Shown here: in pieces, positions 6,420-63,527 of the stretch
How the letters are laid out: each line of letters begins with the position of its first letter
Position numbering within the stretch: position 1 is the stretch's first letter
Assembly: GCA_040264895.1 (NCBI GenBank)
Contig: JBDQHL010000001.1
Coordinates: forward strand, 79,060 to 143,059
From: Bacteroidota bacterium
GTDB taxonomy: Bacteria > Bacteroidota > Ignavibacteria > Kapaibacteriales > UBA2268
Reading direction: 5' to 3'
DNA length: 64,000 nucleotides
Notes under the pieces: generated by a model
Seen by the model: the letters and a program-made list of their open reading frames with translations, nothing else
The model's database searches: none
Told to the model about the DNA's origin: nothing
Program-made: the position numbers and the translations under genes

Positions 6420-6483
6420 CTGGTATCTATTCTTTACTGCTTATATAATAAACAAAATTTTCCAATATTAATTACAGTATAAA

Positions 6484-7242: not shown

Positions 7243-7264
7243 AGTGTTCTTCTCCGTATCATTA

Positions 7265-7305
7265 AATAAAAAAAGGGATAGCACAACTTGCGTCTAGCTA
7301 TCCCT
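7265..7305 (-). terminator. intrinsic terminator after the 1066-aa gene
   Basis: 9-bp stem AGGGATAGC/GCTATCCCT (7274-7282 and 7297-7305), followed on the minus strand by a run of 8 T. Confidence 0.7.
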
Positions 7306-7332
7306 AAGAATGTTATAGTTTACAACTACAGA

Positions 7333-21683: not shown

Positions 21684-21779
21684 AATACCTCCAATAAACA
21701 AATTATTATTAAAAAATTAACTTTTAGTTTCATTATTATTATGTTTTTTTATCACTAAATGCTCTTTATCAATAGTGTT

Positions 21780-34595: not shown

Positions 34596-35636
34596 TTGCT
34601 TAAACTAGAAAACGAAATATATTTATATCTGCATGGTGCACTGCCTGTACTGGTATTGGTGTATCTTGTTTACAGAGCAAAAAGAAAGAAATTACTGAAT
34701 TCATTCGCCAGTACTGAAGCCCTCAAGCGACTATCGCCTAATGTTTCTACATTCAAAAACAGCTTCAAATTTATTTTAATAGCTGTAGCATTCTCTGCTA
34801 TGGTAGTCGGATTAGCTAACCCTCTTATTGGAACTAAGATGAAAGAAGTTAAGCGAGAAGGCGTAGAAGTAGTGATAGCAGTTGATGTATCCAACTCGAT
34901 GTTAGCAGAAGATATTAGGCCCAACAGGTTAGAAAGAGCAAAATCAGCTATAAACAGAATGATTAGCGAACTCTCTCAAGATAAGATTAGCATCGTTTTA
35001 TTCGCAGGTGATTCATTTCTTCAGCTTCCACTCACTACTGATTATTCGGCAGCAAAGCTGATGGTGTCGTCAATGAGTACAGATATGATCGAGAAGCAAG
35101 GAACGGCAATAGGTAGCGCAATAGAATTAGGTATGAAATCATTCTCTGAAGATGAAGAAGTGAACAAAGTATTGATAGTAATTACCGACGGTGAAAACCA
35201 CGAGGACGACGCACTCGGAGCAGCAGAAGAAGCTGCTGAAAAAGGCATAACAGTCCACACAATCGGTATGGGCTCTGTAGAAGGTGGCCCAATACCACGT
35301 TACATAAATGGAAGACCCCAAGGGTTTATAAAAGATAACAGCGGGGCAACTGTAGTATCTAAACTAAACGCAAATATGCTACAAGAATTAGCTTCAGTTG
35401 CTGATGGCAAATTTGTCCGTGCAGCAGGTGGTGAAGTCAATCTATCAGACTTGCTTGCCGATATATCAGAGATGGAAAAAACAGAATTTGAAGCTAAAGT
35501 ATTCACTGACTTCGAAGATAGATTTCAATATTTATTCGGGTTTGCTTTGCTGCTACTTCTGATAGAAATGTTAGTGAGCAATAGAAAGAACAAGCGATTA
35601 ACTTTAAGAAAAATAGTAGGTGAAAACAATGAGTAA
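34596..35636 (+). CDS. batB: VWA domain protein, BatB-like
   Basis: N- and C-terminal TM segments, MIDAS site AVDVSNSM, and DIRPNRLERAK typical of BatA/BatB. Confidence 0.8.
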   Translation: MLKLENEIYLYLHGALPVLVLVYLVYRAKRKKLLNSFASTEALKRLSPNVSTFKNSFKFILIAVAFSAMVVGLANPLIGTKMKEVKREGVEVVIAVDVSNSMLAEDIRPNRLERAKSAINRMISELSQDKISIVLFAGDSFLQLPLTTDYSAAKLMVSSMSTDMIEKQGTAIGSAIELGMKSFSEDEEVNKVLIVITDGENHEDDALGAAEEAAEKGITVHTIGMGSVEGGPIPRYINGRPQGFIKDNSGATVVSKLNANMLQELASVADGKFVRAAGGEVNLSDLLADISEMEKTEFEAKVFTDFEDRFQYLFGFALLLLLIEMLVSNRKNKRLTLRKIVGENNE

Positions 35637-36465
35637 AATAAATATAATAATATTGCTTTTGCTTGGAGTTACTGCTTTGCAAGCAGAAGAACCAAAAAAG
35701 TTCATCTATGAAGGAAATGAAAAATACAAAAGCAACAAATACAAAGACGCAGAAATAGATTATAGAAAGTCATTGGAAGAAGACCCAAATTCCTCCATTG
35801 CAAAATACAATTTGGCAAACTCACTATACAAACAAGGAAATTACGAAGAGGCAAAAACAGAATTTGAGGAGCTTGCACATTCCAATTTCTCAAAAAGTGA
35901 ATTGGCAAATATATATCACAATATGGGTAATGCTCTCTTGGAAGACAAAAAGTACCAAGAAAGTATAGATGCTTATATACAATCACTGAAAAACAACCCT
36001 AAAGACCCTGAAACTAAGTATAACTTAGCTTATGCAAGAGAGATGCTTAGAAAACAAGAACAGCAAAACAAAGATAATCAGGACCAGAACAAAGATCAGC
36101 AAGAACAAAAGGACAAGCAAGAACAAAATAAAGATCAAAATGGTGACCAAAACAAGGACCAACAAAACAAAGATGGTCAGAACGAAGATCAGAATAAAGA
36201 TCAAAACGGGCAAGACAAAGACAAGCAAGACGGGCAGAATCAGAAAGAAAATCAAGACCAACAAAACAAAGATGGTCAGGGCAATCAGCAAAACAAAGAA
36301 AAACCAAAAGATGGCGACAAGGCTCAGAAACAAATGCAGCAAAACAAAATCTCTAAAAAAGATGCTGAAAGAATACTTCAAGCTATGATGCAAGAGGAGA
36401 AAAAGCTGCAGAAGAAAATGAGAAAACTTAAATCTGACGACAAAAAAACTGGAAAGAATTGGTAA
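35620..36465 (+). CDS. batC: TPR protein, BatC-like, with Q/N/K/D low-complexity tail
   Basis: Signal peptide, TPR repeats (AKYNLANSLYKQGNYEEA and others), and its position between the VWA and BatD genes. Confidence 0.7.
   Translation: MKTMSKINIIILLLLGVTALQAEEPKKFIYEGNEKYKSNKYKDAEIDYRKSLEEDPNSSIAKYNLANSLYKQGNYEEAKTEFEELAHSNFSKSELANIYHNMGNALLEDKKYQESIDAYIQSLKNNPKDPETKYNLAYAREMLRKQEQQNKDNQDQNKDQQEQKDKQEQNKDQNGDQNKDQQNKDGQNEDQNKDQNGQDKDKQDGQNQKENQDQQNKDGQGNQQNKEKPKDGDKAQKQMQQNKISKKDAERILQAMMQEEKKLQKKMRKLKSDDKKTGKNW
36060..36330 (+). repeat. imperfect coding low-complexity repeat (AACAAAGAT-rich; encodes QNKDQ-type repeats)
   Basis: About 90 codons drawn almost only from Q, N, K, D, E and G. 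It opens spurious ORFs in three other frames and strands. Confidence 0.85.
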
Positions 36466-38300
36466 TGAGAGGATTTACGAAAACTTATCTGCTATTGATA
36501 CTATTAGTAACTGCTACTGCATCTATTATAGCACAAAACTTCACTGCGGCAGTGTCGAGCAATCCTGTGATAGAAGGTGAGCCTTTTCGAATACAATTTA
36601 GTGTTGACACCGATGCGTCTAACTTTAGACCACCCAGCTTTAGTGGTATGGAAGTGCTCCAAGGACCATCTCAATCGAGTAGCACTCAGATAATTAATGG
36701 GCGTTACAGCAGAGCACTAACCTTCACCTATGTGTTGAAAGCAACAAAAACAGGCACAATAGACATAAAGCCAGCCACTATACAAGTAGAAGGCAAACGA
36801 CTACGTTCTAACTCTATAAAGTTAAGAGTTGTAGAACCTTCGGAAGCTGAAAAACAAAGACGTCAGCAAGAAGCAGAACGCGAAAAGAAAATGAAAGGCG
36901 ATGCGATTGATATTATCAAGGATAATCTATACCTACGCACCAATGTTTCTAAGCGTGATGTATATGTGGGTGAGCAAGTAACCGCATCCTTTAAGCTGTA
37001 TCAAAATGCTGATTTGAATATAGTTGGATTAGAATTAGAAAGTTCACCTGTACTTAATGGATTTTGGAGTCAGGAAATAGACTTAGGTGAATTACAATGG
37101 AAACGAGAGCAAGTTAATGGCGTTTGGTTTCGAGTAGCTAACCTAAAGCAAGTCGTGCTTTTCCCTCAACAAAGCGGTAAATTAACTGTTGAGCCTTATG
37201 AGTTTAAGACAGTAGTAAGACTAAGAACAAGCGGTCAGCAAAGAAGTAGACGAAGTATTTTCGATGATTTTTTCAACCGTGGCTCTTACAAAGACTTTGA
37301 GTACAACCTAAGCTCATCACCAATAACTGTGAACGTAAAGTCACTACCCGAAGGAGCACCAAATGGCTTTAACGGTGCAGTTGGCAAATTCGATATGGAA
37401 GCCTGGGTAGATAACACTAAAACAGTTGCCAATGAGCCAATAACAATGAAAGTAAAGATAAACGGCAAAGGTAACATAAAGCTATTCGACGCACCGAATA
37501 TCAATCTACCACCCGATATGGAGACATTCGACCCAAAAACTGCCGACAACTCACGGTTGTCACTTGCTGGTATGTCTGGCGAGAAGATATTCGAATATCT
37601 TATCATTCCCCGTACACCTGGTGAATATAAAATAGAACCAGTTACTTTTTCTTACTTCGATTTGGGCTCCAAAACATATAAGACTCTCTCATCAGAAGAG
37701 TTTCTAATAACCGTTGGCAAAGGAGAATATGACGGCACAAGCAATGTATCCGGTGTCAGCCGCGAAGAGCTTCAGTTAATAGGGAAAGATATCCGATACA
37801 TAAAATCGGACACCGAACTACAAGACAAAAATCATGGTGGATTTTTTGGTACTCCATCATTCTATGCATTGATAATGCTACCATTCTTCTTATTCCTAAT
37901 CTTGTTCATCATAATAGCAAAACGTAGAAAAGAAGACGACAACACAGAATTAGTAAAAAACAAAAGAGCAAATAAATTAGCAAAGAAACGTTTAGCAGCA
38001 GCAGGAACTGCACTGAAATCGAACAACAGTTCTGACTTTTACGAAGAGATAACAAAAGCATTATGGGGCTATATTTCTGACAAGCTGAACATACCAGTAT
38101 CAGAGTTAAACAAAGATATGGTTCGCCAAAAATTAAACGATATAGCGATAGATGAAGATACAATCGACAAATTTATTTCTGCATTAGAAGAATCGGAATT
38201 CGCTCGCTATTCACCAGGTGGTGACACCACAGGAAAGATGCAGGAACTTTATGATAAATCGACTAATGTGATAACAAGCATAGAGCGAGGTATAAAATGA
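36459..38300 (+). CDS. batD: BatD (oxygen-tolerance) family protein
   Basis: Signal peptide, repeated beta-rich modules, one TM near the C-terminus (FYALIMLPFFLFLILFIIIA), 613 aa, and operon position. Confidence 0.75.
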   Translation: MVMRGFTKTYLLLILLVTATASIIAQNFTAAVSSNPVIEGEPFRIQFSVDTDASNFRPPSFSGMEVLQGPSQSSSTQIINGRYSRALTFTYVLKATKTGTIDIKPATIQVEGKRLRSNSIKLRVVEPSEAEKQRRQQEAEREKKMKGDAIDIIKDNLYLRTNVSKRDVYVGEQVTASFKLYQNADLNIVGLELESSPVLNGFWSQEIDLGELQWKREQVNGVWFRVANLKQVVLFPQQSGKLTVEPYEFKTVVRLRTSGQQRSRRSIFDDFFNRGSYKDFEYNLSSSPITVNVKSLPEGAPNGFNGAVGKFDMEAWVDNTKTVANEPITMKVKINGKGNIKLFDAPNINLPPDMETFDPKTADNSRLSLAGMSGEKIFEYLIIPRTPGEYKIEPVTFSYFDLGSKTYKTLSSEEFLITVGKGEYDGTSNVSGVSREELQLIGKDIRYIKSDTELQDKNHGGFFGTPSFYALIMLPFFLFLILFIIIAKRRKEDDNTELVKNKRANKLAKKRLAAAGTALKSNNSSDFYEEITKALWGYISDKLNIPVSELNKDMVRQKLNDIAIDEDTIDKFISALEESEFARYSPGGDTTGKMQELYDKSTNVITSIERGIK

Positions 38301-39043
38301 AAAACATAATCATAGCCATATTATTTATACCATTTTTGTTAATTGCTAATGCCTCCGATGATCTATTTCAAAAAGGCAACGAACAATATAGCAACAAGCA
38401 ATATTCGGACGCCATTAATACTTATGAGCAGATACTAGACCAAGGAAATGCCTCTGCTGAGCTTTATTACAACTTAGCGAATGCTTATTATAAAACTGAC
38501 AATATCGCCTACGCAATACTCAATTACGAAAGAGCCGACAAGCTAAGTGACAACGAAGACATAGACCACAATCTAACTATAGCTCGACTAAAAACCATAG
38601 ACAAAGTAGAACGAGTAGAGCAAATATTCATAGTAGATTGGATAGACGCACTCCGCAATTTGCAAAACTCCTCAAGTTGGGGTTGGTGGACAGTTGGCTT
38701 CGTTTGGGTGCTATTCGTATTCGCTGGGCTGCTAATATACAGCCGAAGCACAGCAATCAAAAAGCTATCAGTAGCAATGATATTTGCTACTTTAGTAATA
38801 TCAATCGTAACATCGTATTTAGCATTTAGCTCACATCAAAACGAATATGTAAAAGAATTTGCCATACTCACAGAGCAGAGTACTTACGTAAAAAGCTCAC
38901 CCGACTCACAGAGCCAAGACCTATTCATCCTCCACGCAGGAGTGAAAATGCAAGTCTTAGACTCCGTCGGCGATTGGAGAAAAATCCGATTGGACAATGG
39001 CGAAATCGGCTGGGTTGACAGCGGCACATTCACAGTGATTTAA
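38297..39043 (+). CDS. batE: TPR + SH3b protein, BatE-like
   Basis: TPR repeats (AELYYNLANAYYKTDN), TM segments, and a C-terminal SH3b-like GDWRKIRLDNGEIGWV. ATGA overlap with batD. Confidence 0.75.
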   Translation: MKNIIIAILFIPFLLIANASDDLFQKGNEQYSNKQYSDAINTYEQILDQGNASAELYYNLANAYYKTDNIAYAILNYERADKLSDNEDIDHNLTIARLKTIDKVERVEQIFIVDWIDALRNLQNSSSWGWWTVGFVWVLFVFAGLLIYSRSTAIKKLSVAMIFATLVISIVTSYLAFSSHQNEYVKEFAILTEQSTYVKSSPDSQSQDLFILHAGVKMQVLDSVGDWRKIRLDNGEIGWVDSGTFTVI

Positions 39044-39053
39044 TCCTTGGAAG

Positions 39054-39085
39054 TCCTCCCTTATCAGGGAGGATTTAGGTGGGTT
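39054..39085 (+). terminator. hairpin/terminator after batE
   Basis: Perfect 8-bp stem TCCTCCCT/AGGGAGGA with loop TATC, 10 nt after the stop codon, followed by TTTAGGTGGGTTT. Confidence 0.5.
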
Positions 39086-39118
39086 TGAGATAAATAGAAC
39101 CGTAGAAAAGTATCTTGG

Positions 39119-39160
39119 TCATTGAGCCTGTCAAAGTACAAGCACAACGTACTTACTAAA
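39119..39160. repeat. REP-like palindromic element fragment
   Basis: The 14-mer TCATTGAGCCTGTC recurs exactly at 47967-47980. An adjacent 6-bp hairpin reads AAGTAC...GTACTT. Confidence 0.55.
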
Positions 39161-40498
39161 TCAGACTACCTCCACCTTCCTCTCCTCAATATAATATGTC
39201 TTCATCTTACCCTTGCCTTTTATCTCTATCTCACCTCGCTCTACGTACTCAAACTCCTCGTATTCACTTACAGCTTCTTTGAATCGTTCGGTTATGTGCA
39301 CTTGACCTGCTTCCGATGATGTTTCCATGCGGCTGGCTGTGTTTACTGCATCTGACCACATGTCATAGATGAACTTGTTCTCACCAATTACTCCTGCTAC
39401 TACTGGGCCACAGTCCAGTCCAATTCTGACTTCTATCTTGGTGCCATCGGCTGTTCTGTAGTCACTCATCAGCTGTTTTACTTCTAGTGCCATTTGTGCG
39501 GCTCTGTGGGTGTTGTCTTTCTGTACTTCCGGTATACCAGCTGCTGCCATATAGCTATCGCCTATGGTCTTTATCTTCTCCAAGCCATACTTGTTCGAAT
39601 AGTGTCATAGCTGATGAAAATAGCATTGAGAGCTTCGACTAACTTTCGTGGGTCTTCATCCTTAGCCAGCTCTGTGAAGTTTACTATATCAATAAACACA
39701 ATAGATGCTTGTGTGAAGTAGTCTGATATTGGATGTTCTCTCTTCTTCAATCGCTTGGCTATGCTGACTGGCAGTACATTGTACAACAGCTTGTCTGAGC
39801 GCTTCAGCAGTCTATAGATTATAAACATAACCACAGCCATCACAATGATAAAACCAATGGAAAAGTAAAGAATTAGCTTTTCTCTCTTCTCTTGTTCTGC
39901 TATCTTCAGCTTCTGTTTTTCTATTTCTTTCTGCTTTAGGTCGTCTTCTCTAGCTTTTTCTAAAGCTGCTATTTTGTCACTGTTTTCTTGATTGAAGACA
40001 GAGTCTTTAAGCTTGTGATGTTCTTCAAGGGCATCATACGCTTTTCCCATTTCCCCTTTTTGTTTATAAGCCTCAGCTAACACACCTAAAACAAAACTCC
40101 TGCCATTCAGCTTACCAATTTCTTCATTGATTGTTAATGCCTTTTCAATATACTCAAGGGCTTTGGGATAGTCTGATTGACGACGATAGATATTCCCCAT
40201 ATTCCCTAGGCAAACTGCTTTTCCCTTTTATTTCCAATTTTTTCAGTTATCTTTAATGCTTTTCCAAAATACTCTAGGGCTTTGGGGTAGTCCGATTGAA
40301 AAGTATAAATATTACCCATACTTGCGAGATACGTTGCAATTCCAGATTTACCTCATTAGTATCACCCTTTGCATTTGGTAGTTCGGCAAGTAGTGAGTCT
40401 ATTTTTGCCTGGCCTTGGAGGGGTTTTGCATTAGCTGTTGCTTGGGTTGTTATGCTTAGTGATAGCAGTGTTATTAGAACTATTAATATTGATTTCAT
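39161..40498 (-). pseudogene. TPR-sensor class III adenylate/guanylate cyclase, disrupted by at least three frameshifts
   Basis: Signal peptide plus TPR piece (40274-40498). A TPR piece in another frame ends at a TAG near 40210. A TPR-coiled coil-TM-cyclase start (39571-40200) ends in ...FISYDTI, and the cyclase continues as NKYGLEKIKTIGDSYMAAAG in a third frame (39161-39583). Confidence 0.85.
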
Positions 40499-40733
40499 AC
40501 ATTGTCTGTTTAGATATGGGTTTAAAATGCACTGCAATATATGAAATTATTGGGTATTGTTTTTAGGAAAACTTAGTAAGGTTTTAATCTCATGTCTTCC
40601 AACCCTCATAATTAATAACAGCCTTTCACTTTTTTATTATCGTCACAATTACTTTGATATTAATTAACATGTGGATAGTTTGAAATAAAAAAATTCGCTA
40701 TATTCTATAATAACAAAAGAAGATAATTGATTA

Positions 40734-41207
40734 ATGACTAACAACGATATATTACGAAGATTACGATACCTCTTCGACTACAGTGATTCCAAGATAATCG
40801 AACTATTCAAACTAGCCGGTTCAGACGTGGAAGAAGCTGACTTATTCGACTGGTTTAGGAAAGACGACGACCTCGATTTAGCTGAGATGAGCGATAGGGA
40901 AATGGCGACTTTCCTCAACGGATTGATAATAGAAAAACGAGGAAAAAGAGATGGCCCACAACCCGAACCCGAAGATCGGCTGACCAATAATATTATACTC
41001 CGAAAGCTAAAAATAGCATTGGATTTGAAGTCCGATGACATAATAGAATTATTCGCACTGACGGATAAGAAGATTAGCCCACATGAGTTAAGCTCCTTTT
41101 TCCGAAGACCAGGACACAAATCATACCGTCCATTTATGGATCAGTATTTGCGTAATTTTTTGAATGCACTGCAAACTAAAAACTCAAAAGAACCGGGAAG
41201 TATTTAG
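40734..41207 (+). CDS. DUF1456 (YehS-like) protein
   Basis: Two tandem repeats, NDILRRLRYLFDYSDSKIIELF and NNIILRKLKIALDLKSDDIIELF, as in the YehS family. Confidence 0.75.
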   Translation: MTNNDILRRLRYLFDYSDSKIIELFKLAGSDVEEADLFDWFRKDDDLDLAEMSDREMATFLNGLIIEKRGKRDGPQPEPEDRLTNNIILRKLKIALDLKSDDIIELFALTDKKISPHELSSFFRRPGHKSYRPFMDQYLRNFLNALQTKNSKEPGSI

Positions 41208-41213
41208 TTAGAA

Positions 41214-41248
41214 TTATCAAAACTTGCAAAATTTACAAGTTTTGATAA
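41214..41248. other. perfect 13-bp inverted repeat (TTATCAAAACTTG-N9-CAAGTTTTGATAA)
   Basis: Read directly from the sequence. It lies 7 nt after the DUF1456 stop and 73 nt before the BLUF-cyclase start, with no T-run after it. Confidence 0.8.
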
Positions 41249-41320
41249 CTAGTAAATAAGCAATATATCCGAAATTGTATAAATACTGAGAAGAGAGCTA
41301 GGAATGACAAAAGGTAAATA

Positions 41321-42328
41321 ATGAAAAGGATAACATATATTAGTAGAATTACTAATACACTTTCATCTAAAGAAATTGAAACCATTGGTATTATTTCTAG
41401 TGAAAATAATAAGCAAGTTAATATTACTGGCACATTAGTTTGCTTCGAAAAATTGTTTTTCCAGATTATTGAGGGAGATGAAAAAGACGTTGATCGGCTT
41501 TATCTAAAAATTGGCAAAGACCCTAGGCATAAAGAAGTTCTGAGACTTAAGACAGAATATAACGTAAGCAAACGACTTTTTCCTAAATGGTCTATGAGAA
41601 CTATCAATCTGGATAATAATGTTGATGATTTATTACGCCCAATTAAGATTTTGTTACAAACCGTTGTAGAGTCGCATTCCATTATAGCGCGTTATACGCA
41701 ACCTACTATTCTAAAAATATTGAACAGAGGTATAAACCCTCTATATGCTACACCTGTCAGAGCAGAAAAAGTAATTTTATTTGCAGATATCCTCTCCTAT
41801 ACTTCAATTAGTGAAAAAATGCCAACAGATAGTATTCTATTAGTCCTGGACACCTATTTTGAAATTTGTAGTCGCATAATCCTTGAAAAAGGAGGCGAAG
41901 TTAACAAATTTATGGGTGATGGGTTAATGGCATATTTTGATACTTCGCAAGCGGACAATGCCATACATTCATGTCTAGAAATATTAGAAGAATTGCAGAC
42001 TTTACACAAAAACTCGTCAGAAGATTCACCACTGCAGTTACTTAATTCTGGATTTGGGCTTGCTCAAGGATCAGTTATTGAAGGTAATATGGGTTCTCAC
42101 TTTAAAACAGACTATACGATTATAGGTGATGCCGTGAATTTTGCAGCCCGGTTAGAAGGTTTGACTCGTCAAGTCAAACGGTCATTGGTTTTCTCAGAGT
42201 CGCTTAAACATAGCACAAAGGAACCCTGGCCTTTTACAAGTCTTGGGAAATTTTATCTTAAAGGGAAAGAGAATCATAAAGAAGTTTATTCAATTGACCA
42301 TCACCTGGTCAACAACTTTAAAGGATAG
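41321..42328 (+). CDS. BLUF-domain photoactivated adenylate cyclase (bPAC/BlaC-like)
   Basis: BLUF domain: ITYISRI (Tyr), NITGTLVCFEKLFFQIIEGDE (Gln), RLYLKIGKDPRH. Class III cyclase: ILFADILSYT and VNKFMGDGLMAYF (metal Asp, substrate Lys), DYTIIGDAVNFAARLE (Thr, Asn, Arg). It is collinear with the Beggiatoa bPAC sequence as I remember it. Confidence 0.9.
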   Translation: MKRITYISRITNTLSSKEIETIGIISSENNKQVNITGTLVCFEKLFFQIIEGDEKDVDRLYLKIGKDPRHKEVLRLKTEYNVSKRLFPKWSMRTINLDNNVDDLLRPIKILLQTVVESHSIIARYTQPTILKILNRGINPLYATPVRAEKVILFADILSYTSISEKMPTDSILLVLDTYFEICSRIILEKGGEVNKFMGDGLMAYFDTSQADNAIHSCLEILEELQTLHKNSSEDSPLQLLNSGFGLAQGSVIEGNMGSHFKTDYTIIGDAVNFAARLEGLTRQVKRSLVFSESLKHSTKEPWPFTSLGKFYLKGKENHKEVYSIDHHLVNNFKG

Positions 42329-42444
42329 ATATATTCAATGAAAAAGAAATGTATAACGTCATAAGACACAAAACAAACGTTAAGCCTTTTTTAAGTCTTT
42401 TCGAATGGCGAAGATAAAATTATAAAAACAAACAAATAGTAGAC

Positions 42445-43605
42445 ATGAACAATTTTGAATTTAAGAATCCAACCAAAATATTATTTGGTAAAGGACAAAT
42501 AGAAAACATAGCAAACGAAATCCCTAAAGATGCCAAAGTATTGATGCTATTTGGTGGGGGAAGTATCAAAAAGAACGGAATTTATGAGCAAGTAAATGCA
42601 ACACTTCAAAATCACAACGTCTTGGAGTTTGGAGGCATTCCTGCAAACCCAGAATATTCTGTCCTTATGGAAGCACTAAAAGTAATCAAAGAAGAGAATA
42701 TCACTTATTTACTTGCTGTAGGTGGAGGTTCAGTGATAGACGGAACAAAATTCCTTTCTGCTGCTGCCCTATACGAAGGTGAAGAGCCATGGGAAATACT
42801 AACCAACAAAATTCCTATAGATGAGGGGATGCCCTTTGCAACTGTGCTGACCTTACCTGCTACTGGGTCTGAGATGAACTCAGGTGCTGTGATAACAAGA
42901 GAAGAAACAAAAGAAAAACTAGTCATGGGTGGCTCAGGATTATACCCAGTGTTTTCGGTGCTCGATCCACAAGTAATACACTCAATACCTCACAAACAAT
43001 TGGTGAACGGAATAACTGATGCCTTTACTCACGTATTGGAACAGTATGTTACATTTCCTATTGGAGCCAGTCTCCAAGATAGATTGTCGGAAAGTATATT
43101 GCAAACCCTAATAGAAGTTGCTCCAAAAGTTTTGGAAGACCCAACAGATTACACAACTGGCTCTAACTTTATGTGGAGTTGTACTATAGCTTTGAATGGT
43201 TTGATCAAGCAAGGAGTTCCTACTGATTGGGCAATACATGCTATGGGTCATGAGCTAACCGCTCTTTATGGCATTGACCACGCGAGAACCCTAGCTATTA
43301 TAGCACCGAGCCATTATGAATATAATCTCGATACGAAAAAAGAAAAGCTCGCTCAATATGCCGAGCGTGTTTGGAATATTACAGATGGATCTACGGAAGA
43401 TAAAGCAAGAGCTGCAATCAAAAGAACAGAGGCATTCTTTAACGAGATGGGAATAGACACTAAACTTTCTAAGTACACTGACGAATATGAAGGTACCGCT
43501 GAAGAAATCTCAAAAAGATTTACAGAACGAGGCATTGAGGGTCTTGGAGAGCATCAGAATCTAACCCCTGATGACGTAGAAAAAATTGTAAGAATGTCTT
43601 ACTAA
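42445..43605 (+). CDS. iron-containing alcohol dehydrogenase (YqhD/butanol dehydrogenase-like)
   Basis: FEFKNPTKILFGKGQIENI, GGGSVIDGTKF and HAMGHELTALYGIDHA motifs. Confidence 0.9.
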   Translation: MNNFEFKNPTKILFGKGQIENIANEIPKDAKVLMLFGGGSIKKNGIYEQVNATLQNHNVLEFGGIPANPEYSVLMEALKVIKEENITYLLAVGGGSVIDGTKFLSAAALYEGEEPWEILTNKIPIDEGMPFATVLTLPATGSEMNSGAVITREETKEKLVMGGSGLYPVFSVLDPQVIHSIPHKQLVNGITDAFTHVLEQYVTFPIGASLQDRLSESILQTLIEVAPKVLEDPTDYTTGSNFMWSCTIALNGLIKQGVPTDWAIHAMGHELTALYGIDHARTLAIIAPSHYEYNLDTKKEKLAQYAERVWNITDGSTEDKARAAIKRTEAFFNEMGIDTKLSKYTDEYEGTAEEISKRFTERGIEGLGEHQNLTPDDVEKIVRMSY

Positions 43606-43643
43606 ATAATATTAGAAAACTAACTCAAAAACACGAACACAAA

Positions 43644-44984
43644 ATGTCAAACAACGAAAACACAAGCAACCCACTTACCAAATCTATACTCGAAAAATTT
43701 GAGATAGAAGAGCTGAACCCAATGCAGTTGGAGGCAGGTAGAAACATAAGGAAGAAGTCCGATGTAGTATTGCTCTCCCCTACTGGTACTGGTAAAACTC
43801 TGGCGTTTCTGTTGCCGCTAATAGAGACATTAGACCCAGAGAATACGGAGATTCAGATTCTAATAATAGTGCCTTCGCGTGAGTTGGCACAGCAGCTGTT
43901 ACAAGTAGCTCGGGATATGGGTTCGGGGTTCAAGGTGAATGCTGTGTATGGTGGTCGTGCTGGCTCGCAAGATAAGCTCGATTTGCAGCACTTACCAGCT
44001 ATTCTAATCGGAACTCCGGGACGTATAGCCGATAGATTTTTCAAGGATACTTACTCGCTCGATCATATCAAAACACTTGTGTTAGACGAGTTCGACAAAT
44101 CGCTTGAAATGGGCTACGAAGATGATATGATGGATATAATAGAATCGCTGCCTAATGTAAAGCAGAGGATTCTTACATCAGCTACTCGTGATAATAAGAT
44201 ACCGAAGTTCGTGGGGTTGCAAAAGCCAGTATTCATCAACTATGCTGATGAGGGTGTTCCTCAGCTGGCTATCAAAACGGTACTTGCACCCGACAGAGAT
44301 AAGTTAAATTCTCTGGAAAAAACACTTGCTCACATTGGCCCAAAACCTGGCATTATCTTCTGTAGTTTCAAAGATGAGCTATATGACGTCAGTGAATTTC
44401 TGGATGATTGTGACATTTCGCACGAGTGCTTCCACGGAGATATGGAGCAACTTGACAGGGAACAAGCACTGATCAAATTCAGGAATGGAACTACACAGCT
44501 ATTACTGGCAACCGATTTGGCTGCTCGTGGGCTCGACATTCCCGAACTTGCGTTTATTCTACATTACCGCTTGCCACTGCGATACAACGAATTTTTACAC
44601 AGGAACGGACGTACTGCACGGATGAACACCGACGGAGTAGCGTACATACTCCACTGGACGGGCGAAGAACTACCGGAATACATACAGGACATAGCTCCAG
44701 AAGAAATAACGGTAGGCGATCTGCAGCCCTCACACGAGCCGGCACCAGTCAGATGGGTGACTCTATACATAACTGGTGGAAGACGCGAGAAAATATCCAA
44801 AGGCGACATAGCAGGTCTGTTTATGAAGCAAGGCAAGATAGACAAAGACCAACTTGGCGTAATAGAACTACAAGAGGGCTGCTCTTACGTAAGTGTACAC
44901 GCCAACATAGCAAGCAAGGCAGTAGAGAAAACCAATAATACTAAGCTGAAGAAAAAGAAAGTTAGGATTAGTGTAGTGAAGTAA
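43644..44984 (+). CDS. DEAD-box RNA helicase, DbpA-like C-terminal RNA-binding domain, motif II variant DEFD
   Basis: Motifs SPTGTGKT, VLDEFD, SAT and HRNGRTAR. The C-terminal segment LYITGGRREKISKGDIAGL resembles the DbpA RBD. Confidence 0.85.
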   Translation: MSNNENTSNPLTKSILEKFEIEELNPMQLEAGRNIRKKSDVVLLSPTGTGKTLAFLLPLIETLDPENTEIQILIIVPSRELAQQLLQVARDMGSGFKVNAVYGGRAGSQDKLDLQHLPAILIGTPGRIADRFFKDTYSLDHIKTLVLDEFDKSLEMGYEDDMMDIIESLPNVKQRILTSATRDNKIPKFVGLQKPVFINYADEGVPQLAIKTVLAPDRDKLNSLEKTLAHIGPKPGIIFCSFKDELYDVSEFLDDCDISHECFHGDMEQLDREQALIKFRNGTTQLLLATDLAARGLDIPELAFILHYRLPLRYNEFLHRNGRTARMNTDGVAYILHWTGEELPEYIQDIAPEEITVGDLQPSHEPAPVRWVTLYITGGRREKISKGDIAGLFMKQGKIDKDQLGVIELQEGCSYVSVHANIASKAVEKTNNTKLKKKKVRISVVK

Positions 44985-45199
44985 AGAGCCCAACAGTAAT
45001 TACTAATGTCACTGCGAGACTTATCAATTTACTGATATGTTGTGGCAGTCTCAATTTGAGAATTGTGTACCTCTCTAAAAAAAGAGCTATTCAGCAAGGG
45101 AGCAAGTTCCCTTTTTGCTTTCCTGAATTTTTGTGAAAACGAGTAACAGAGTAACTGAAAAAACAGAAAAATAATTTATACATACACCCCTTGTATATT

Positions 45200-58764: not shown

Positions 58765-60744
58765 TTAAAACGCTACACTTACTCCACCATAAACCATTCT
58801 TCCTGGTGCCGATATTCCGATTCGTGTTAATCTTGATTGGTCAAATATATTATTTGCTCGAATAAAGAAGGTATATAAGTTCTCGTTATAAGTAGTTAAA
58901 TAACTCATTCGCAGGTTTACCAATGCTGATTGGTCTATCTCTTCCAAAACGTCAGTTATATCAGATATACCGTATTGACGACCCATAAAGTCCAATTCAG
59001 CCATTAAGTCAAAACCACCGCCAACACGCCAATCTGCTTGCAAAAATGCAATGATTTCTGGCTTAGCTTCCAAATCTTGTTCTACACCATCTACCGTACC
59101 CTTGCTATTCATATAAGTGAAGTGACCAGATATGTCAATATCATTTGTAACATAATACTTAGCTCTAAATTCGGCCCCTAATATCGTAGCTTCATCTAAA
59201 TTGATTCGCTGTCTTCTGTTAAGTGTGTCACCTTCCACGGCAGCTTGTGTTATCAAATCTGAAAAGCTATTTGCAAAAAGTGATAGTGTAGTCTCCAAAT
59301 CTCCTGCTGAATAGTCTATACCGATTTCCGATAGTATCCCTGTTTCTGGTTTCAGATTAGGGTTAACTACGAATCTATTAAGTGCTGCAGAAAATGACTC
59401 ACGCATGGTTGGAAATCGGCTCTTTTTACCAACATTACCAAATAGATTAATACTACTGCTTATGTTATAATTAACTCCAAATACGGCAGCAATATCATCA
59501 TACGAACTACCATTCGCTTCCGTAAAGTCACCGGCATCACTGATATCGAATCTGTCATAAGAAGAACCAATAGTAAATACCCAGTCGCCTTGCAATCTTT
59601 TGTACTCCGCTCCAAAGCTTGATGTTGTTTGTCCGTAGTCTTTGGTCACAGAATTACCATCTGCATCCTCTATTTCTTCAGTATGAGAAGAAGTAAACCC
59701 ATTAATAGTGAAATTCAATATATCGTTATCACTTATGTCAGCCTTCAAGTTCATTCGAGTGCCAAAAGTGTTGTCATCATCATATTGTATTTCATTAATT
59801 TCTTCGAATGCTATGCTTTGGTAATCCTCAATTGTCTGATTAAACTGATCGCCCCATATAGCTCCCCTAAAAGATATGCTTTCAGATATTTGTGAGCTAC
59901 CATTTACAGTAACTATACTTCTCATCCACTCGGGATATTTCCAGAATCGAGTGTTAACACCTTCTGGGTTGTTAACTGGTATTACCCCTTTATTTCCGTT
60001 TACATGATTGAAGGACACACCTAATTTGTCTGTCTCACTGAATGAATATTCCCCACGTCCGTAAGCCGTAATCCTCTCGTTTTGACTATTCGGAATCAAA
60101 TTTTCTCCCTCTCCAGTTCGTAAGTTCAAGCTATTATCTTTCGGAGCTTTCAGCCCATCACGTGTCATGAATGAGATATTACCCAGATAGTTGAATTTAC
60201 CATCTTTCCCTTCAATTTTTACAGCGCTATACTTCCTTCCAGCTTCTCCAATTTGCAATGAAACATTCCCCCCTAAACCTTCGCTTTCTCTTTCGGAAGT
60301 AGTAATATTTATTGCACCACCCAACACATTTGCCCCATACAGAACTGAGTTCGTACCAGTACTAATTTTTAGGTTTCCAATTATGTCTGTGGGTATCATA
60401 CTTAGGTCCAACCTATTATCCCAAGGAACATTGAAGTATATGCCATCGAAGAAAATGGAGATAGACCTTTCCCCTGCTCCACGTAGAAATATAAGTGACT
60501 CGCCACGCGAGTTAGTTTGCAGAAAACCAGCAGGGATTACAGCATTCAACTCTTCAAAATTAACAGCATCCTGTTCTTTAATTTCGTGATATTTTATCTC
60601 TTTTATATTAGTAGGAGTAATATTAACTCCCTTATCCGATTCAGATACTATCTCCCCAAGCCTATAAGTTTTTATAGTGTCTCTGGGCGATTGAGAATTA
60701 GATAATGTTGCTACTAATAATAAGATAAATACTAATCTTTTCAT
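58765..60744 (-). CDS. TonB-dependent receptor (BtuB-sized, 659 aa)
   Basis: Signal peptide, plug motifs (SLIFLRGAGERSISIFFDGIYFN, SVLYGANVLGGAINITT) and a terminal GGVSVAF. Confidence 0.9.
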   Translation of the reverse strand: MKRLVFILLLVATLSNSQSPRDTIKTYRLGEIVSESDKGVNITPTNIKEIKYHEIKEQDAVNFEELNAVIPAGFLQTNSRGESLIFLRGAGERSISIFFDGIYFNVPWDNRLDLSMIPTDIIGNLKISTGTNSVLYGANVLGGAINITTSERESEGLGGNVSLQIGEAGRKYSAVKIEGKDGKFNYLGNISFMTRDGLKAPKDNSLNLRTGEGENLIPNSQNERITAYGRGEYSFSETDKLGVSFNHVNGNKGVIPVNNPEGVNTRFWKYPEWMRSIVTVNGSSQISESISFRGAIWGDQFNQTIEDYQSIAFEEINEIQYDDDNTFGTRMNLKADISDNDILNFTINGFTSSHTEEIEDADGNSVTKDYGQTTSSFGAEYKRLQGDWVFTIGSSYDRFDISDAGDFTEANGSSYDDIAAVFGVNYNISSSINLFGNVGKKSRFPTMRESFSAALNRFVVNPNLKPETGILSEIGIDYSAGDLETTLSLFANSFSDLITQAAVEGDTLNRRQRINLDEATILGAEFRAKYYVTNDIDISGHFTYMNSKGTVDGVEQDLEAKPEIIAFLQADWRVGGGFDLMAELDFMGRQYGISDITDVLEEIDQSALVNLRMSYLTTYNENLYTFFIRANNIFDQSRLTRIGISAPGRMVYGGVSVAF

Positions 60745-60854
60745 ACTTGAAGTTTGGTTCTGTGCTTACAATTAGACATTTCGAATTGCAAAGATAGCAA
60801 AGTGAAGTCAAAATTTTGAATTTTTAGAATAATAGTATAGATTTGAATTACTGA

Positions 60855-61012
60855 TTAGTCATTAGTTATTGGGAATCCTGTGAAAATCAGGAACGGTTCC
60901 GCCGCTGTAACGAGATACGACCGAACTATGTAATTAATTGCAGTCACTGTGCTTTAGGCGCGGGAAGGCAGTTCGGAAGGTTTGAAGCTTGAAGTCAGAA
61001 CACCTACTAAAT
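60855..61012 (+). promoter_or_regulatory. cobalamin (B12) riboswitch aptamer
   Basis: GGGAATCCTGTGAAAATCAGGAACGGTTCCGCCGCTGTAA core, GCGGGAAGGC, and a B12-box-like GAAGTCAGAACACCTAC in canonical order on the + strand, with P1 pairing TTAGT/ACTAA. Confidence 0.85.
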
Positions 61013-61187
61013 TATACTCATTGGATAAATTCTTAAATTAGAGAATTGAACATCTGCGGAATACAGATGCTTTGAGGTAAAAAGCACCCCCTAACGTAGC
61101 GATTGGCTACCCCTGACTCAAGTGCCTTGCCTCTTAATACAGAAAGAAATAGATTTAATATTTAATAATTAACAAGGTACAATTCTT

Positions 61188-63527
61188 ATGAATAAGTATT
61201 TAATAGCTTTTGCTGCATTGCTATGTAGCTATGGAATAGTTAGTTCTTCTGTCATCACCGAATCTGCGGTACAGTATGAAGTTGGTAGTAATGTGGTAGG
61301 GATAACTGAAAACCCGATAGACAATGTGGTGCACATTTTTTGTGCTGGTATTGACGTAAACGAGAACGGTATATACGACGAGGGTGAGGATGAAAAACCA
61401 TCTTGGTGGAGAGTTGACCCCAATGGCTCATCAGTGGAGCCTACATTATTAAAAGAATTTGACACTTATTTCATGGAGCCATTTGTACTGACAACCGATA
61501 TTACCAAAGGGTATGCAACTGTTGTACTCAATTTTGCATCTATTATTGAAAATGAAACTGTAACTCAAGATGGTTATACTCAAGGATTTCAAATGAAAAA
61601 TGCCGTACCTGCATTCAAAATTGATGTTGATAATGGTGAGCCAGTAATCTTAAAACAGTTCGACACTTATTCTGTTGCGGCTATTAATTCTACTATTAAT
61701 GGGATTGTTTCTGTTATTAATAATGAAACAAAAGAGGAGAAATTAGTTAACCTAAACGGCAATATTTACTCGGCAATTTTTGTTGATTTAGAAAATGATG
61801 GAACAGAGGAGTTAGCAGTATTAACTGAGTCAGGTTTTTTCAACTTCTACCAAATAACTAATGATGCAGAGGCGACTTTAGTAGCAACTTATGATGCAAG
61901 CACAGAACCACAATTCACAGGTACCTTTGGTGATTTATATTCAGACTATGGTGCTGTATTCACTTTGTTCGAGGGGTCTAGCTCTGTAATAAAAATCACT
62001 GCAGATTATAACGGTACCGTGTCTAGTGATATTGAAGAAAAAGACTGGTTCTCTGAACCAACTCTTTATTTCCCAATTACTACTCAATGGAATTTGATTT
62101 CGAATAGGGATTTTGAGACTCTTGTATTTAATTTCCTTTATGAATTAGAAAAACATAGAACAGGTCATGTAATTCAAACTGCCTACAAAGCAGGTGACAG
62201 ATTATATTTGGGTTCCAGCAATGTAGTAATACCATTTACAATAACTGATGAAAGGATTGAGGACATTAAGTATGTTGATCACAATTTTTCTGGTTATCAA
62301 CCATTGGATATATTGAGTGACGGACCTGAGTACTATGTGTTGAACTTAGGGGTTGACTTCGATTTCAACGGTGTGGTAGATTCTGACAAAGGTGATGTAA
62401 GTTCTTCAATCACCAAGTTTGTTGGCCTTGGTCAACAAGCATTTGTACCTGGAGAAACGCGTGAAATAGCAGATTTACCATTCTATTTGAACTTTCCCAT
62501 CAATACTAATTTGTCGTTCGATGGAATTATAATCCTACCATCTGGTAATAAAGCATATATGTTCGATATAGAAAGTGAGACTATTATAGACTCAATTGAT
62601 GCTGGTATGTATGTTACTTCAGCATTCTCAGTACTCGATTACTTAGTTTTAGGTACCAGAGATTATGATGAAGGCAAGAGCTATGTTAGAATTATTAATG
62701 ATGAAGTTGGTATAGATGTAAGCGAAGAAGTTGGTCCTAATGTAATTGATGTAACAGTCTATCAGAACGGTTCTGGATTTGGTGTAATTTCTGTTTCTGA
62801 AGGTAACTTCAACGAGTCAGATGCAACTATCAATATTTTGAAACTTGGTTTTGTAGGATTCACTGAAAACATAAGCATAGATGCAGGTATGACTGGTAGC
62901 AATGTAGTTACTAATTCTATCCAAACTAAAGCTGCCGTAGTAATGAACGGTAGTCACGAGATTCATATTATTGACTTATTAAAAGCAGAAAAGGAGCTTA
63001 CATTCTCAACAGGAACAACGGGCTATGGGGGTCCAAGAGATGTGATATTTATAAATAAATTGCTTTTTGTAACTACTTATAGCAATAGAGTTTTAGTATT
63101 CGATTCCGAAAATGGTGATAAGCTATCTGAATACAGTGTAGATGGCCACTCAGAAGGAATAATAGAAGCGAATAGTTACTTTTATATAGCTAACAATAAC
63201 TACTCAAACTATAAACCAAATAGCAGAGTAGTAGCTTATAATAAGAATCCTAGAATAACAAATGTAGATTCTGAAGCTAGTGACTATACCTCTCCCATCC
63301 GTATCTACCCGCACCCAGTTGGGAACGAGTTCCATATGGTGTCAGATGAGTTAGTGGGTGAGTTGGAGATTGCAATCATAGACGGACAGGGCAAGATAGT
63401 AGCCACACACTCTGCTGTTGCCGATGGCGAAGTAGCAATGAGTGCAGATGAACTTGGTCTTGGTGCTGGTAACTACACTGCGATTATCAATGGAACCAAA
63501 GCAGTGAGATTTATAGTCATTAAGTGA
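61188..63527 (+). CDS. T9SS-sorted beta-propeller surface protein (candidate BtuG/YncE-like B12-capture protein)
   Basis: Signal peptide and repeated strand-turn blocks typical of propellers (for example RDVIFINKLLFVTTYSNRVLVFDSENG). CTD reads IYPHPVGNEFHM...GNYTAIINGTKAVRFIVIK. First gene after the B12 riboswitch. Confidence 0.6.
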   Translation: MNKYLIAFAALLCSYGIVSSSVITESAVQYEVGSNVVGITENPIDNVVHIFCAGIDVNENGIYDEGEDEKPSWWRVDPNGSSVEPTLLKEFDTYFMEPFVLTTDITKGYATVVLNFASIIENETVTQDGYTQGFQMKNAVPAFKIDVDNGEPVILKQFDTYSVAAINSTINGIVSVINNETKEEKLVNLNGNIYSAIFVDLENDGTEELAVLTESGFFNFYQITNDAEATLVATYDASTEPQFTGTFGDLYSDYGAVFTLFEGSSSVIKITADYNGTVSSDIEEKDWFSEPTLYFPITTQWNLISNRDFETLVFNFLYELEKHRTGHVIQTAYKAGDRLYLGSSNVVIPFTITDERIEDIKYVDHNFSGYQPLDILSDGPEYYVLNLGVDFDFNGVVDSDKGDVSSSITKFVGLGQQAFVPGETREIADLPFYLNFPINTNLSFDGIIILPSGNKAYMFDIESETIIDSIDAGMYVTSAFSVLDYLVLGTRDYDEGKSYVRIINDEVGIDVSEEVGPNVIDVTVYQNGSGFGVISVSEGNFNESDATINILKLGFVGFTENISIDAGMTGSNVVTNSIQTKAAVVMNGSHEIHIIDLLKAEKELTFSTGTTGYGGPRDVIFINKLLFVTTYSNRVLVFDSENGDKLSEYSVDGHSEGIIEANSYFYIANNNYSNYKPNSRVVAYNKNPRITNVDSEASDYTSPIRIYPHPVGNEFHMVSDELVGELEIAIIDGQGKIVATHSAVADGEVAMSADELGLGAGNYTAIINGTKAVRFIVIK

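Follow-up and report, generated by a model that had tools for sequence, protein, structure and literature searches.

A BLUF-domain photoactivated adenylate cyclase of the OaPAC/bPAC type predicted at a variably occupied site in a Kapaibacterium-like Bacteroidota bacterium

Photoactivated adenylate cyclases (PACs) serve as optogenetic tools, and measurements exist for only a few natural enzymes. EuPAC of Euglena carries four BLUF/cyclase modules across its alpha and beta subunits, and bPAC (BlaC) stems from a non-phototroph, Beggiatoa sp. PS. Structures exist for bPAC (PDB 5m27, 5mbk and others) and for another characterised natural PAC, OaPAC of Oscillatoria acuminata (PDB 4yus, 5x4t, 8qfe-j, 9f1w-z). 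When bPAC, EuPAC, TpPAC, mPAC and LiPAC were compared side by side, dark leak and light activity were found to vary widely (PMC8522238). In OaPAC, roles in light signalling have been assigned to Leu111, Leu115, Tyr125 and Asn256 (10.1101/2023.09.05.556344), the metal and ATP ligands have been described (PMC11533990), and the last 9 residues inhibit the enzyme 30-60-fold (PMC6937261). A light-sensing domain coupled to a class III cyclase, as in the protein reported here, is also found in TpPAC and LiPAC (both spirochaete BLUF cyclases), EuPAC, mPAC and LprA of Leptospira kobayashii (PMC8522238, PMC9043183). The sensor is a LOV domain in mPAC and neither BLUF nor LOV in LprA, whereas it is a BLUF domain in our protein. 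The native role of LprA is motility (PMC9043183).

The PAC gene described here lies in a stretch of 64,000 nucleotides, referred to below as the window. Its coding sequence (41321..42328, plus strand) is a single intact ORF of 335 aa running from ATG to TAG. The first-pass annotation had called the product a compact BLUF cyclase of the bPAC/OaPAC type, and the ORF and all motifs that it quoted were found at the residues given: ITYIS (aa 4-8), FFQIIEG (aa 46-52), PIKILLQTV..SH (aa 107-119), FADILS (aa 154-159), VNKF and FMGDG (aa 194-201), TDYTIIGD (aa 263-270), and AVNFAARLE (aa 271-279). In the Pfam search, the BLUF model (PF04940) matched over profile positions 1-91 of 92 with E 2.2e-25 and 89 bits (cutoff 25), and Guanylate_cyc (PF00211) with E 4.1e-13 and 49.8 bits (cutoff 21.9); a search of NCBIfam returned no matching model. 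The BLUF flavin-binding domain occupies aa 1-92 (41321..41596) and holds Tyr6, Ser26, Asn30, Gln48, Trp90, and Met92. It is followed on the same plus strand by the alpha-3 linker helix (aa 106-125, 41636..41695), with Leu111, Val115 and Tyr125, and by the class III adenylate cyclase catalytic domain (aa 152-320, 41774..42280), with Asp156, Lys196, Asp200, Asp264, Thr266, Asp270, Asn273, Arg277, and Glu279.

Searches of the PDB, a residue table and a fold search agreed with this assignment. With phmmer, the protein aligned without gaps to OaPAC (5x4t, aa 1-332 to 1-332, 52% identity, E 1.1e-114) and to bPAC (5m27, whose chain A was used as the reference sequence; aa 1-326 to 5-330, 46% identity, E 1e-99). 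The collinearity with bPAC described in the first-pass annotation thus holds without internal gaps, but OaPAC is the nearer of the two, and bPAC and our protein fall into separate clades of a neighbour-joining (NJ) tree. An AF2 monomer model (pLDDT 80) was compared with the PDB by Foldseek. All of the top 23 fold matches were OaPAC or bPAC chains, with E down to 7.5e-44, and OaPAC was the best. Against the isolated bPAC cyclase domain (5mbg), the TM score was 0.87 (target-normalised; rmsd 1.5 Å, 181 columns), while whole-chain TM scores were 0.57-0.60, as the relative placement of the two domains is not recovered in the monomer model. A helix is predicted for aa 106-125, with low confidence in the monomer and a linker pLDDT below 55. 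Judged by sequence and modelled fold, the protein is by every criterion a new member of the well-studied OaPAC/bPAC family, with the same BLUF/alpha-3/cyclase architecture as both.

The comparison covered 25 positions for which a part in photochemistry, signal relay, metal binding or ATP specificity is known or has been proposed. At these positions the protein differs from OaPAC only by L115V, K29N, and R63K. The last two are the residues found in bPAC, and L115V is a conservative change; position 115 is Val here and in 9 of 15 aligned Bacteroidota sequences, Leu in OaPAC and Ile in bPAC. Tyr6, Asn30, Gln48, Trp90 and Met92 of the flavin pocket are identical in OaPAC and bPAC, and Leu111, Tyr125, Asp156, Lys196, Asp200, Asn256, Asp270, Asn273, Arg277 and Glu279 are identical in OaPAC. 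These include all the cyclase residues Asp156, Asp200, Asp270, Asn273, Arg277 and Glu279, as well as the interface residues Leu111, Tyr125 and Asn256, of which the latter two form the contact with the cyclase tongue. From bPAC, S27, K197, F198, D265, T267 and R278 are kept; Lys196, Asp264 and Thr266, the equivalents of K197, D265 and T267, specify ATP and not GTP. The BLUF Tyr and Gln, the metal-binding Asp residues, the Lys/Asp/Thr set and the Asn/Arg pair named in the first-pass annotation are therefore all present, and the alignment to bPAC and OaPAC that it had set as a test revealed no loss of flavin-binding or catalytic residues. Across 77 aligned relatives, Y6, N30, Q48, D67, H70, W90, M92, D156, K196, D200, N273 and R277 are invariant, T266 is kept in 75, and position 264 is Asp or Glu in all. 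Ser26 is variable outside the cyanobacterial and Thiotrichaceae members.

The protein differs from both characterised enzymes at residue 201 and at its C-terminus. Residue 201, beside the metal-binding Asp, is Gly here and in all 15 aligned Bacteroidota sequences, but Cys in OaPAC and in bPAC (Cys202). Of 51 sequences aligned from cyanobacteria and Thiotrichaceae, 49 also have Cys and two have Ser. C201G is one of four clade-fixed changes near the active site and core, together with V202L, I245F, and L285V. In addition, OaPAC has 366 aa and the C-terminus of bPAC is 15 residues longer than ours. As our protein ends at residue 335, it has no C-terminal extension and thus lacks the tail that inhibits OaPAC. 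A naturally tail-less PAC with Gly201 might show an activity or a dark leak unlike those of bPAC and OaPAC.

By analogy with homologues, we infer flavin binding, dimerisation, light activation and a physiological role for this protein. As in the solved structures, it would form a homodimer with a flavin in each N-terminal BLUF domain. Under blue light, the flavin would receive an electron from Tyr6 in a proton-coupled transfer, and the hydrogen-bond network of Gln48, Met92 and Trp90 would rearrange. The signal would then pass along the alpha-3 coiled coil, by way of Leu111, Val115 and Tyr125, to Asn256 in the cyclase tongue and open both active sites, which lie where the two subunits meet. There, two Mg2+ ions would be held by Asp156 and Asp200, the adenine would be recognised by Lys196, Asp264 and Thr266, and Asn273 and Arg277 would act in the transition state as ATP is converted to cAMP. 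In daylight, the enzyme would then raise cellular cAMP. Pfam scans of about 45 ORFs detected no cNMP-binding or CRP protein in the 64-kb window. A search of RNA runs for the gene returned two runs of uncertain type with only low-depth fragments of 96-97% identity, which do not serve as evidence of a transcript.

An intact set of motifs does not ensure a functional tool, because LiPAC was inactive in the side-by-side assay, in which its activity was undetectable and the light/dark ratios of natural PACs ranged from 28 to 1650 (PMC8522238). With such a spread, a protein of the same fold and family could also be constitutive, light-inhibited or practically inactive instead of a bPAC-like switch. 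The four clade-fixed changes would fit this, as would a C-terminus 13 residues shorter than that of Oa-348, the shortest OaPAC truncation tested (PMC6937261). However, the residues whose part in light signalling was proven by mutation in OaPAC or bPAC (Y6, Q48, M92, L111, Y125, N256, K196, R277) are all present. Compared with its 90%-identical homologue at locus L087, the gene shows a dN/dS of 0.083 at dS 0.66, and purifying selection is strong along its whole length. That this includes the BLUF domain argues against altered regulation, which we consider improbable. That light controls the synthesis of a nucleotide other than cAMP, for instance cGMP, is far less probable still: PF00211 spans adenylate and guanylate cyclases alike, and Ryu et al. 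reportedly needed only three substitutions in 2010 to make BlaC/bPAC a guanylate cyclase, but the adenine-specifying Lys196, Asp264 and Thr266 are intact here. We give equally little credence to a decaying relic without function. The locus has several deletions and adjoins a cyclase pseudogene, yet the frame is intact, the catalytic and photochemical residues are in place, dN/dS is low (0.08), and the identical protein sequence occurs in at least six independent metagenomes.

Homologues of the gene are widespread. Public databases contain more than 250 close ones, of which most come from marine Bacteroidota, and members of the family are present in at least 114 GTDB species from at least 8 phylum-level groups, so that a PAC in a non-phototroph, which had been presented as notable, is not. 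The gene is neither rare nor surprising, and what is known of how PACs work is unchanged by it. The nearest relatives are Bacteroidota BLUF cyclases of about 336-344 aa with 69-78% identity, found for example in Saprospiraceae MAGs (MDG2450680.1, MFT5748471.1), Lutimonas halocynthiae CECT 8444 and Urechidicola vernalis P050. They share the clade-specific Gly201, Leu202, Phe245 and Val285 but belong to other Bacteroidota classes and lie in unrelated genomic contexts. Their annotation reads just 'BLUF domain-containing protein' or 'adenylate cyclase', and in the literature searched we found no paper on BLUF cyclases in Bacteroidetes or Flavobacteria and no characterised member of the clade.

The gene had also been described as AT-rich. 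The count of 15/60 GC at 41341-41400 is correct, but 6.4% of the 60-mers in the window are as low. Overall GC is 34.6% against 36.7% for the window (24th percentile among 1008-bp windows), and with a GC3 of 0.277 the gene sits in the middle of the range shown by 32 ORFs of the window. As GC, GC3 and codon-usage distance all lie inside the range of other window genes, we rejected a compositional anomaly. The description of the host as T9SS-bearing has its basis in four cargo proteins with a Por_Secre_tail sorting domain, two of them below the Pfam gathering score, and not in the secretion machinery.

The PAC gene is a single-gene insert, variably present, between the genes for a DUF1456 protein and an iron-type alcohol dehydrogenase (Fe-ADH). 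In the sister MAG L088, the DUF1456 stop and the Fe-ADH start are 27 bp apart with no PAC at the site, and the gene is likewise missing in the more distant relatives L090-L092. Single nanopore reads span DUF1456-PAC-Fe-ADH. The empty site was seen in 0 reads of three sub-sampled nanopore runs, whose depth of only about 1-3x is too shallow to exclude it. On the right, homology with PAC-less genomes resumes at the conserved leader of the Fe-ADH gene (42415..42444, plus strand). Window positions 42415-44983 match L088 9974-12538 at 90%, so that this leader delimits the insert on the right. Both 41209-41222 and 42415-42428 align to L088 9974-9987, forming a 12/14 direct repeat. On the left, a hairpin with a perfect 13-bp stem and a 9-nt loop (41214..41248, plus strand; -16.6 kcal/mol, z -4.9) directly follows the DUF1456 stop and is likely a terminator that separates the PAC gene from its upstream neighbour. 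This region is identical (40/40) to positions 8239-8278 of L090-L092, again 3' of DUF1456, indicating that the hairpin is ancestral and lies outside the insert.

Immediately 5' of the PAC gene, the 3' end of a beta-lactamase-like gene survives as a degenerate tail remnant, stop codon included (41266..41301, plus strand), which matches L090 at 9918-9931 (14/14) and 9940-9960 (20/21). At L087, an intact 76-nt tail that is 97% identical to that of L090 precedes the PAC gene. A possible second remnant (GAATGG and GCGAAGA; 42402..42414, plus strand) follows the gene. Taken singly, its matches of 7-8 nt to the tail in L090 are no better than expected by chance (E about 0.4 and 1.5). We read it as a tail copy because of its position and by comparison with L087, where a repeat of the tail's first 30 nt lies 11 nt beyond the PAC stop. 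No significant hairpin was found in the 3' flank (z -1.2). A promoter/terminator scan, which does not model Bacteroidota promoters, gave counts near the shuffle expectation, and Rfam reported nothing near the gene, its only match in the window being a cobalamin riboswitch. No conserved operon partner emerged: when 11 window neighbours were searched by tblastn against 80 PAC loci, synteny was shared only within the same species, and when 866 flanking ORFs were clustered, the only neighbours conserved beside PAC genes were those shared inside individual genera of cyanobacteria.

The host is an estuarine, Kapaibacterium-like member of the Bacteroidota from a heterotrophic lineage, presumably non-phototrophic like the source of bPAC and in contrast to the cyanobacterial host of OaPAC. 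For its GatB, identity is 94% to the protein of a 'Chlorobiota bacterium' MAG and 83% to that of a Ca. Kapaibacterium sp., and the same taxa appear in the 90% clusters of DbpA, Fe-ADH and the sigma factor. These four proteins led us to reject a Saprospiraceae host, which the PAC matches had suggested. The PAC protein, however, falls inside a clade of Flavobacteriaceae and Saprospiraceae sequences (NJ bootstrap 91-100%), suggesting horizontal transfer, and the gene was probably obtained from Bacteroidia of this type. We favour a single, older transfer from Bacteroidia, after which the gene was lost repeatedly. A recent insertion in this genome alone, or an old gene inherited vertically in Kapaibacteria, is less likely, though it deserves more weight than the rival views of the enzyme's function. 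The empty site of L088, the lack of the gene in L090-L092 and the 12/14 direct repeat around the insert, relative to L088, would suit the former. But the second PAC gene, at L087 (90% aa identity), stands after a tail 97% identical to that of L090 and hence at the same site in another lineage, and remnants of the same tail-PAC-tail duplication surround both copies. The dS between the two (0.66) moreover matches that of flanking core genes (Fe-ADH 0.62, DbpA 0.93). The shared site, shared duplication and matching dS suggest that the gene was inserted once, before the lineages split, with losses thereafter. Vertical descent is opposed by the position of the protein inside the Flavobacteriaceae/Saprospiraceae clade, by its 69-78% identity to PACs of Flavobacteriaceae isolates and Saprospiraceae MAGs, and by the GatB search, whose best 120 matches, down to 58% identity, include none named for either family. 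Taken together, we hold it very probable that the gene encodes a soluble PAC of the OaPAC/bPAC type, a stand-alone accessory cassette that probably came from Bacteroidia and has been under purifying selection since.

Near the PAC gene, on the minus strand (39161..40537), lies a pseudogene of a protein with a signal peptide, TPR, a transmembrane segment and a class III cyclase, in which the Pfam domain Guanylate_cyc is split across two ORFs. Relative to the intact 618-aa orthologue in L088, it has three frame changes and lacks about 530 bp. The same DNA is present in 5 assemblies, and individual nanopore reads run across the region. This TPR-cyclase is a possible functional counterpart of the PAC and not a part of it. 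The TPR-regulated membrane cyclase is thus intact in the PAC-less sister and decayed beside the PAC gene here. It is a long shot that gain of the PAC let the lineage discard its native TPR-cyclase, switching the input to cAMP from a ligand or protein to light, and that the tail-PAC-tail direct repeat makes the gene an excisable cassette. If true, such a cassette would explain the presence and absence of the gene among close relatives.

The protein samples a well-populated, uncharacterised clade of Bacteroidota PACs with short C-termini. Without an inhibitory tail of the OaPAC type and with a fixed Cys-to-Gly change beside the catalytic Asp, it is a reasonable candidate for variant screens. To our knowledge, a native bacterial role has been shown only for LprA among TpPAC, LiPAC, EuPAC, mPAC and LprA, and we know of none for the clade of our protein. 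On the preferred reading, the locus documents a further case in which a gene feeding light into cAMP signalling moved between Bacteroidota classes and was gained and lost at one site, and it raises the question of what role BLUF cyclases play in non-phototrophic bacteria.

The photoactivated adenylate cyclase (PAC) gene occupies window 41321-42328 (+) as one uninterrupted open reading frame from ATG to TAG, encoding 335 aa, and each of the motifs quoted for it in the first-pass annotation was found where that annotation had placed it. In Pfam searches, aa 1-92 matched the BLUF domain over its full length (E 2.2e-25) and aa 152-320 a class III cyclase domain (E 4.1e-13), each hit exceeding its curated cut-off; NCBIfam held no model matching the protein. 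The top matches among all PDB sequences were the two compact photoactivated adenylate cyclases of solved structure, OaPAC of Oscillatoria acuminata (E 1.1e-114, aa 1-332 to 1-332, gap-free) and bPAC of Beggiatoa sp. PS (E 1e-99, aa 1-326; the bPAC sequence used in our comparisons is identical to 5m27_A). The protein is 52% identical to OaPAC and 46% to bPAC, which share 58% with each other. An AlphaFold2 model built from 28 homologues had a mean pLDDT of 80, and the best 23 matches in a PDB fold search with it were all OaPAC or bPAC. The model fitted the isolated bPAC cyclase-domain structure with a TM score of 0.87 and an rmsd of 1.5 Å; over the whole chain, TM reached only about 0.58, since a monomer model poorly positions the linker, which forms a dimeric coiled coil in the crystal structures.

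Functional residues were assessed in an alignment of 80 sequences (77 relatives from GTDB genomes, the query protein, OaPAC and bPAC), using the roles published for flavin pocket, relay, catalysis and specificity (PMC11533990, 10.1101/2023.09.05.556344). The query carries the flavin-pocket residues Tyr6, Ser26, Asn30, Gln48, Trp90 and Met92, the relay residues Leu111, Tyr125 and Asn256, and the catalytic and specificity residues Asp156, Lys196, Phe197, Asp200, Asp264, Thr266, Asp270, Asn273, Arg277 and Glu279. The earlier assignment to the compact BLUF-cyclases of bPAC/OaPAC type is thus supported by the Pfam and PDB searches, by residue conservation and by the fold match. By homology, the protein would be a flavin-bound homodimer in which blue light triggers electron and proton transfer from Tyr6 to the flavin. 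Light would also rearrange Gln48, Met92 and Trp90; the alpha-3 coiled coil would carry the signal to the cyclase tongue, and two Mg2+ sites would serve the conversion of ATP to cAMP.

The query ends at residue 335, whereas OaPAC has 366 aa, so the query is without the C-terminal brake of OaPAC. Removal of the last nine or more residues raised OaPAC activity 30-60-fold (PMC6937261), and even the shortest of the truncations tested exceeds the query by 13 residues. At compared positions whose role is known or has been proposed, the query differs from OaPAC by L115V, which is conservative, and by K29N and R63K, both of which are the bPAC residues. The performance of natural PACs varies greatly, and one of them, LiPAC, was inactive (PMC8522238). 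Four changes are fixed in the query's clade relative to the cyanobacterial/Thiotrichaceae sequences: C201G, V202L, I245F and L285V. The query and all 15 aligned PACs of the Bacteroidota clade have Gly at residue 201 (window 41921-41923), which follows the metal-binding Asp200. OaPAC, bPAC and 49 of 51 aligned cyanobacterial/Thiotrichaceae sequences have Cys at this position, and the remaining two have Ser.

The gene had also been described as notably AT-rich. The count of 15/60 GC at 41341-41400 is correct, but it is no anomaly, since 6.4% of the 60-mers in the window are as GC-poor, the gene (34.6% GC; window, 36.7%) lies at the 24th percentile, and its GC3 and codon usage fall within the spread of 32 other ORFs. 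The closest homologue among those with DNA compared, P0002 on the related-lineage contig L087, is 90% identical in amino acids (dS 0.66, dN 0.055, dN/dS 0.083). Thirteen contigs, drawn from six or more separate metagenome assemblies, encode the identical PAC protein, and single nanopore reads of 4-8 kb cover the locus end to end. Runs containing it were mostly estuary metagenomes; the RNA runs searched yielded no usable transcript evidence.

Four window proteins have a T9SS sorting domain, two of them under the Pfam gathering score. A Saprospiraceae host was considered and rejected, as the housekeeping genes point elsewhere: GatB shares 94% identity with its counterpart in a 'Chlorobiota bacterium' MAG, 83% with that of a Ca. 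Kapaibacterium sp. and 82% with that of an Ignavibacteriae MAG, and the same taxa occur in the 90% clusters that hold DbpA, Fe-ADH and an ECF sigma factor. NCBI taxonomy places Kapaibacterium in Bacteroidota, class Eximiradiia. Unlike these genes, PAC clusters in a neighbour-joining (NJ) tree with Flavobacteriaceae/Saprospiraceae sequences (69-78% identity), within a Saprospiraceae/Lewinellaceae/Flavobacteriaceae/Roseivirgaceae clade (bootstrap 100%); a subclade made up of four Flavobacteriaceae and one Saprospiraceae MAG had 91%. None of the best 120 GatB matches (down to 58% identity) was named Flavobacteriaceae or Saprospiraceae, which gives weak support as many are nameless. Together, the grouping, the identities and the GatB contrast favour, with moderate confidence, a transfer of PAC from Bacteroidia.

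The sister MAG L088 (GCA_046290495.1) is syntenic with the window between the S8 peptidase and DbpA, Bat operon included; PAC is absent there, and 27 bp separate the DUF1456 stop from the Fe-ADH start. PAC is also absent from the more distant L090-L092, where DUF1456 is followed by a hairpin, a 192-aa ORF, a beta-lactamase-like gene, 27 bp and Fe-ADH. Traces of this arrangement persist in the window. The hairpin (41214-41248) is 40/40 identical to L090, and a degenerate remnant of the 3' tail of the beta-lactamase-like gene (41266-41301) lies just upstream of PAC; a possible short trace of the same tail downstream (42402-42414) matches individually at chance level. In L087, PAC is preceded by the tail in intact form (76 nt, 97% identity to L090), and the first 30 nt of this tail recur 11 nt past the PAC stop to form a tail-PAC-tail direct repeat; both contig ends are identical owing to this still-exact duplication. 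The regions compared were window 41208-41320 and 42329-42444, L087 1-86 and 1095-1135, and L090 9884-10000. Relative to L088, the insert edges form a 12/14 direct repeat (TAGAATTATCAAAA / TAAAATTATAAAAA). No mobile-element gene is present at the insert.

Between the window and L087, dS is 0.66 for PAC, 0.62 for Fe-ADH and 0.93 for DbpA, so that PAC equals the flanking core genes. The simplest reading is that PAC was inserted once, before these lineages diverged, and that L088 and L090-L092 lost it later, which would be easy through recombination between the repeats. Deletion in the window's lineage also removed the 192-aa ORF and, apart from its tail, the beta-lactamase-like gene. A recent independent gain of PAC is conceivable, though less simple than the early insertion. 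In the estuary assembly of run X7 (64% of the run read), contigs over window 39000-45000 end at 41278 and restart at 42493, either side of PAC, which may reflect strain-level presence or absence; the X2 assembly is continuous here. The hairpin follows the DUF1456 stop with a perfect 13-bp stem and a 9-nt loop (-16.6 kcal/mol, z -4.9) and is 100% conserved in relatives that match the window at only ~79% across the coding DNA of DUF1456. It probably acts as a terminator; conservation this strong could also point to a protein-binding palindrome.

Immediately upstream of PAC lies a pseudogene (39161-40537, -) of a class III adenylate cyclase with signal-peptide, TPR and transmembrane segments. Its L088 orthologue (5883-7739) is intact at 618 aa; in the window, the reading frame of the pseudogene changes three times, and ~530 bp of its TPR block are missing. 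Five independent assemblies agree exactly in this DNA, so these defects are not assembly errors. The PAC-less sister retains an intact cyclase and the window, with its acquired PAC, a decayed one; a link between this decay and the presence of PAC is speculation. About 1.5 kb of L088 (7795-9454), including a DUF6794 gene (8750-9127), is absent from window 40555-40688, between the pseudogene and DUF1456. Several independent deletions have occurred at this locus. No cNMP-binding protein was found within the window by Pfam scans, and no partner gene of PAC is conserved in other taxa.

Elsewhere, the Bat (aerotolerance-type) operon (34596-39043, +; BatA/VWA, TPR, BatD and TPR-SH3 genes) is kept in the sister MAG. 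A 2674-aa ORF (13677-21701, -) with BNR/YCF48-like, Sortilin-Vps10 and Chlamydia PMP repeats probably encodes a giant secreted or surface protein; it lies in a run of T9SS-sorting-domain proteins (7333-10533 over the Pfam cut-off; 10564-11727 and 11727-13589 under it). A cobalamin riboswitch (60826-61025, +; RF00174, 73 bits) precedes a 779-aa ORF (61188-63527) with no Pfam match, divergent from a TonB-dependent receptor gene (58765-60744).

A 90%-cluster search returned 254 PAC homologues at E <= 1e-20, more than 100 with at least 60% identity, the named ones being Saprospiraceae, Lewinellaceae and Urechidicola. An exhaustive search of 50%-identity representatives gave 121 clusters at E <= 1e-30, about 60-70 of them full-length collinear proteins of 330-370 aa. 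In the GTDB scan, 114 species representatives held relatives, from Bacteroidota (including the cultured Lutimonas halocynthiae and Urechidicola vernalis), Desulfobacterota, Fibrobacterota, Cloacimonadales, Riflebacteria, Acidimicrobiaceae, many cyanobacteria and Thiotrichaceae. Given this spread, a PAC in a non-phototroph is ordinary. Light-dependent activity is the defining property of the family. No paper on a Bacteroidota PAC turned up in our literature search. A native role has been shown for a single light-activated cyclase of bacteria, LprA of Leptospira (PMC9043183), whose sensor domain differs from that of PAC. Judged on sequence and predicted fold, PAC adds an uncharacterised member, with predicted light-dependent activity, to a known and fairly large family. 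It is an unsurprising find, and a moderately useful optogenetic candidate and example of gene mobility.
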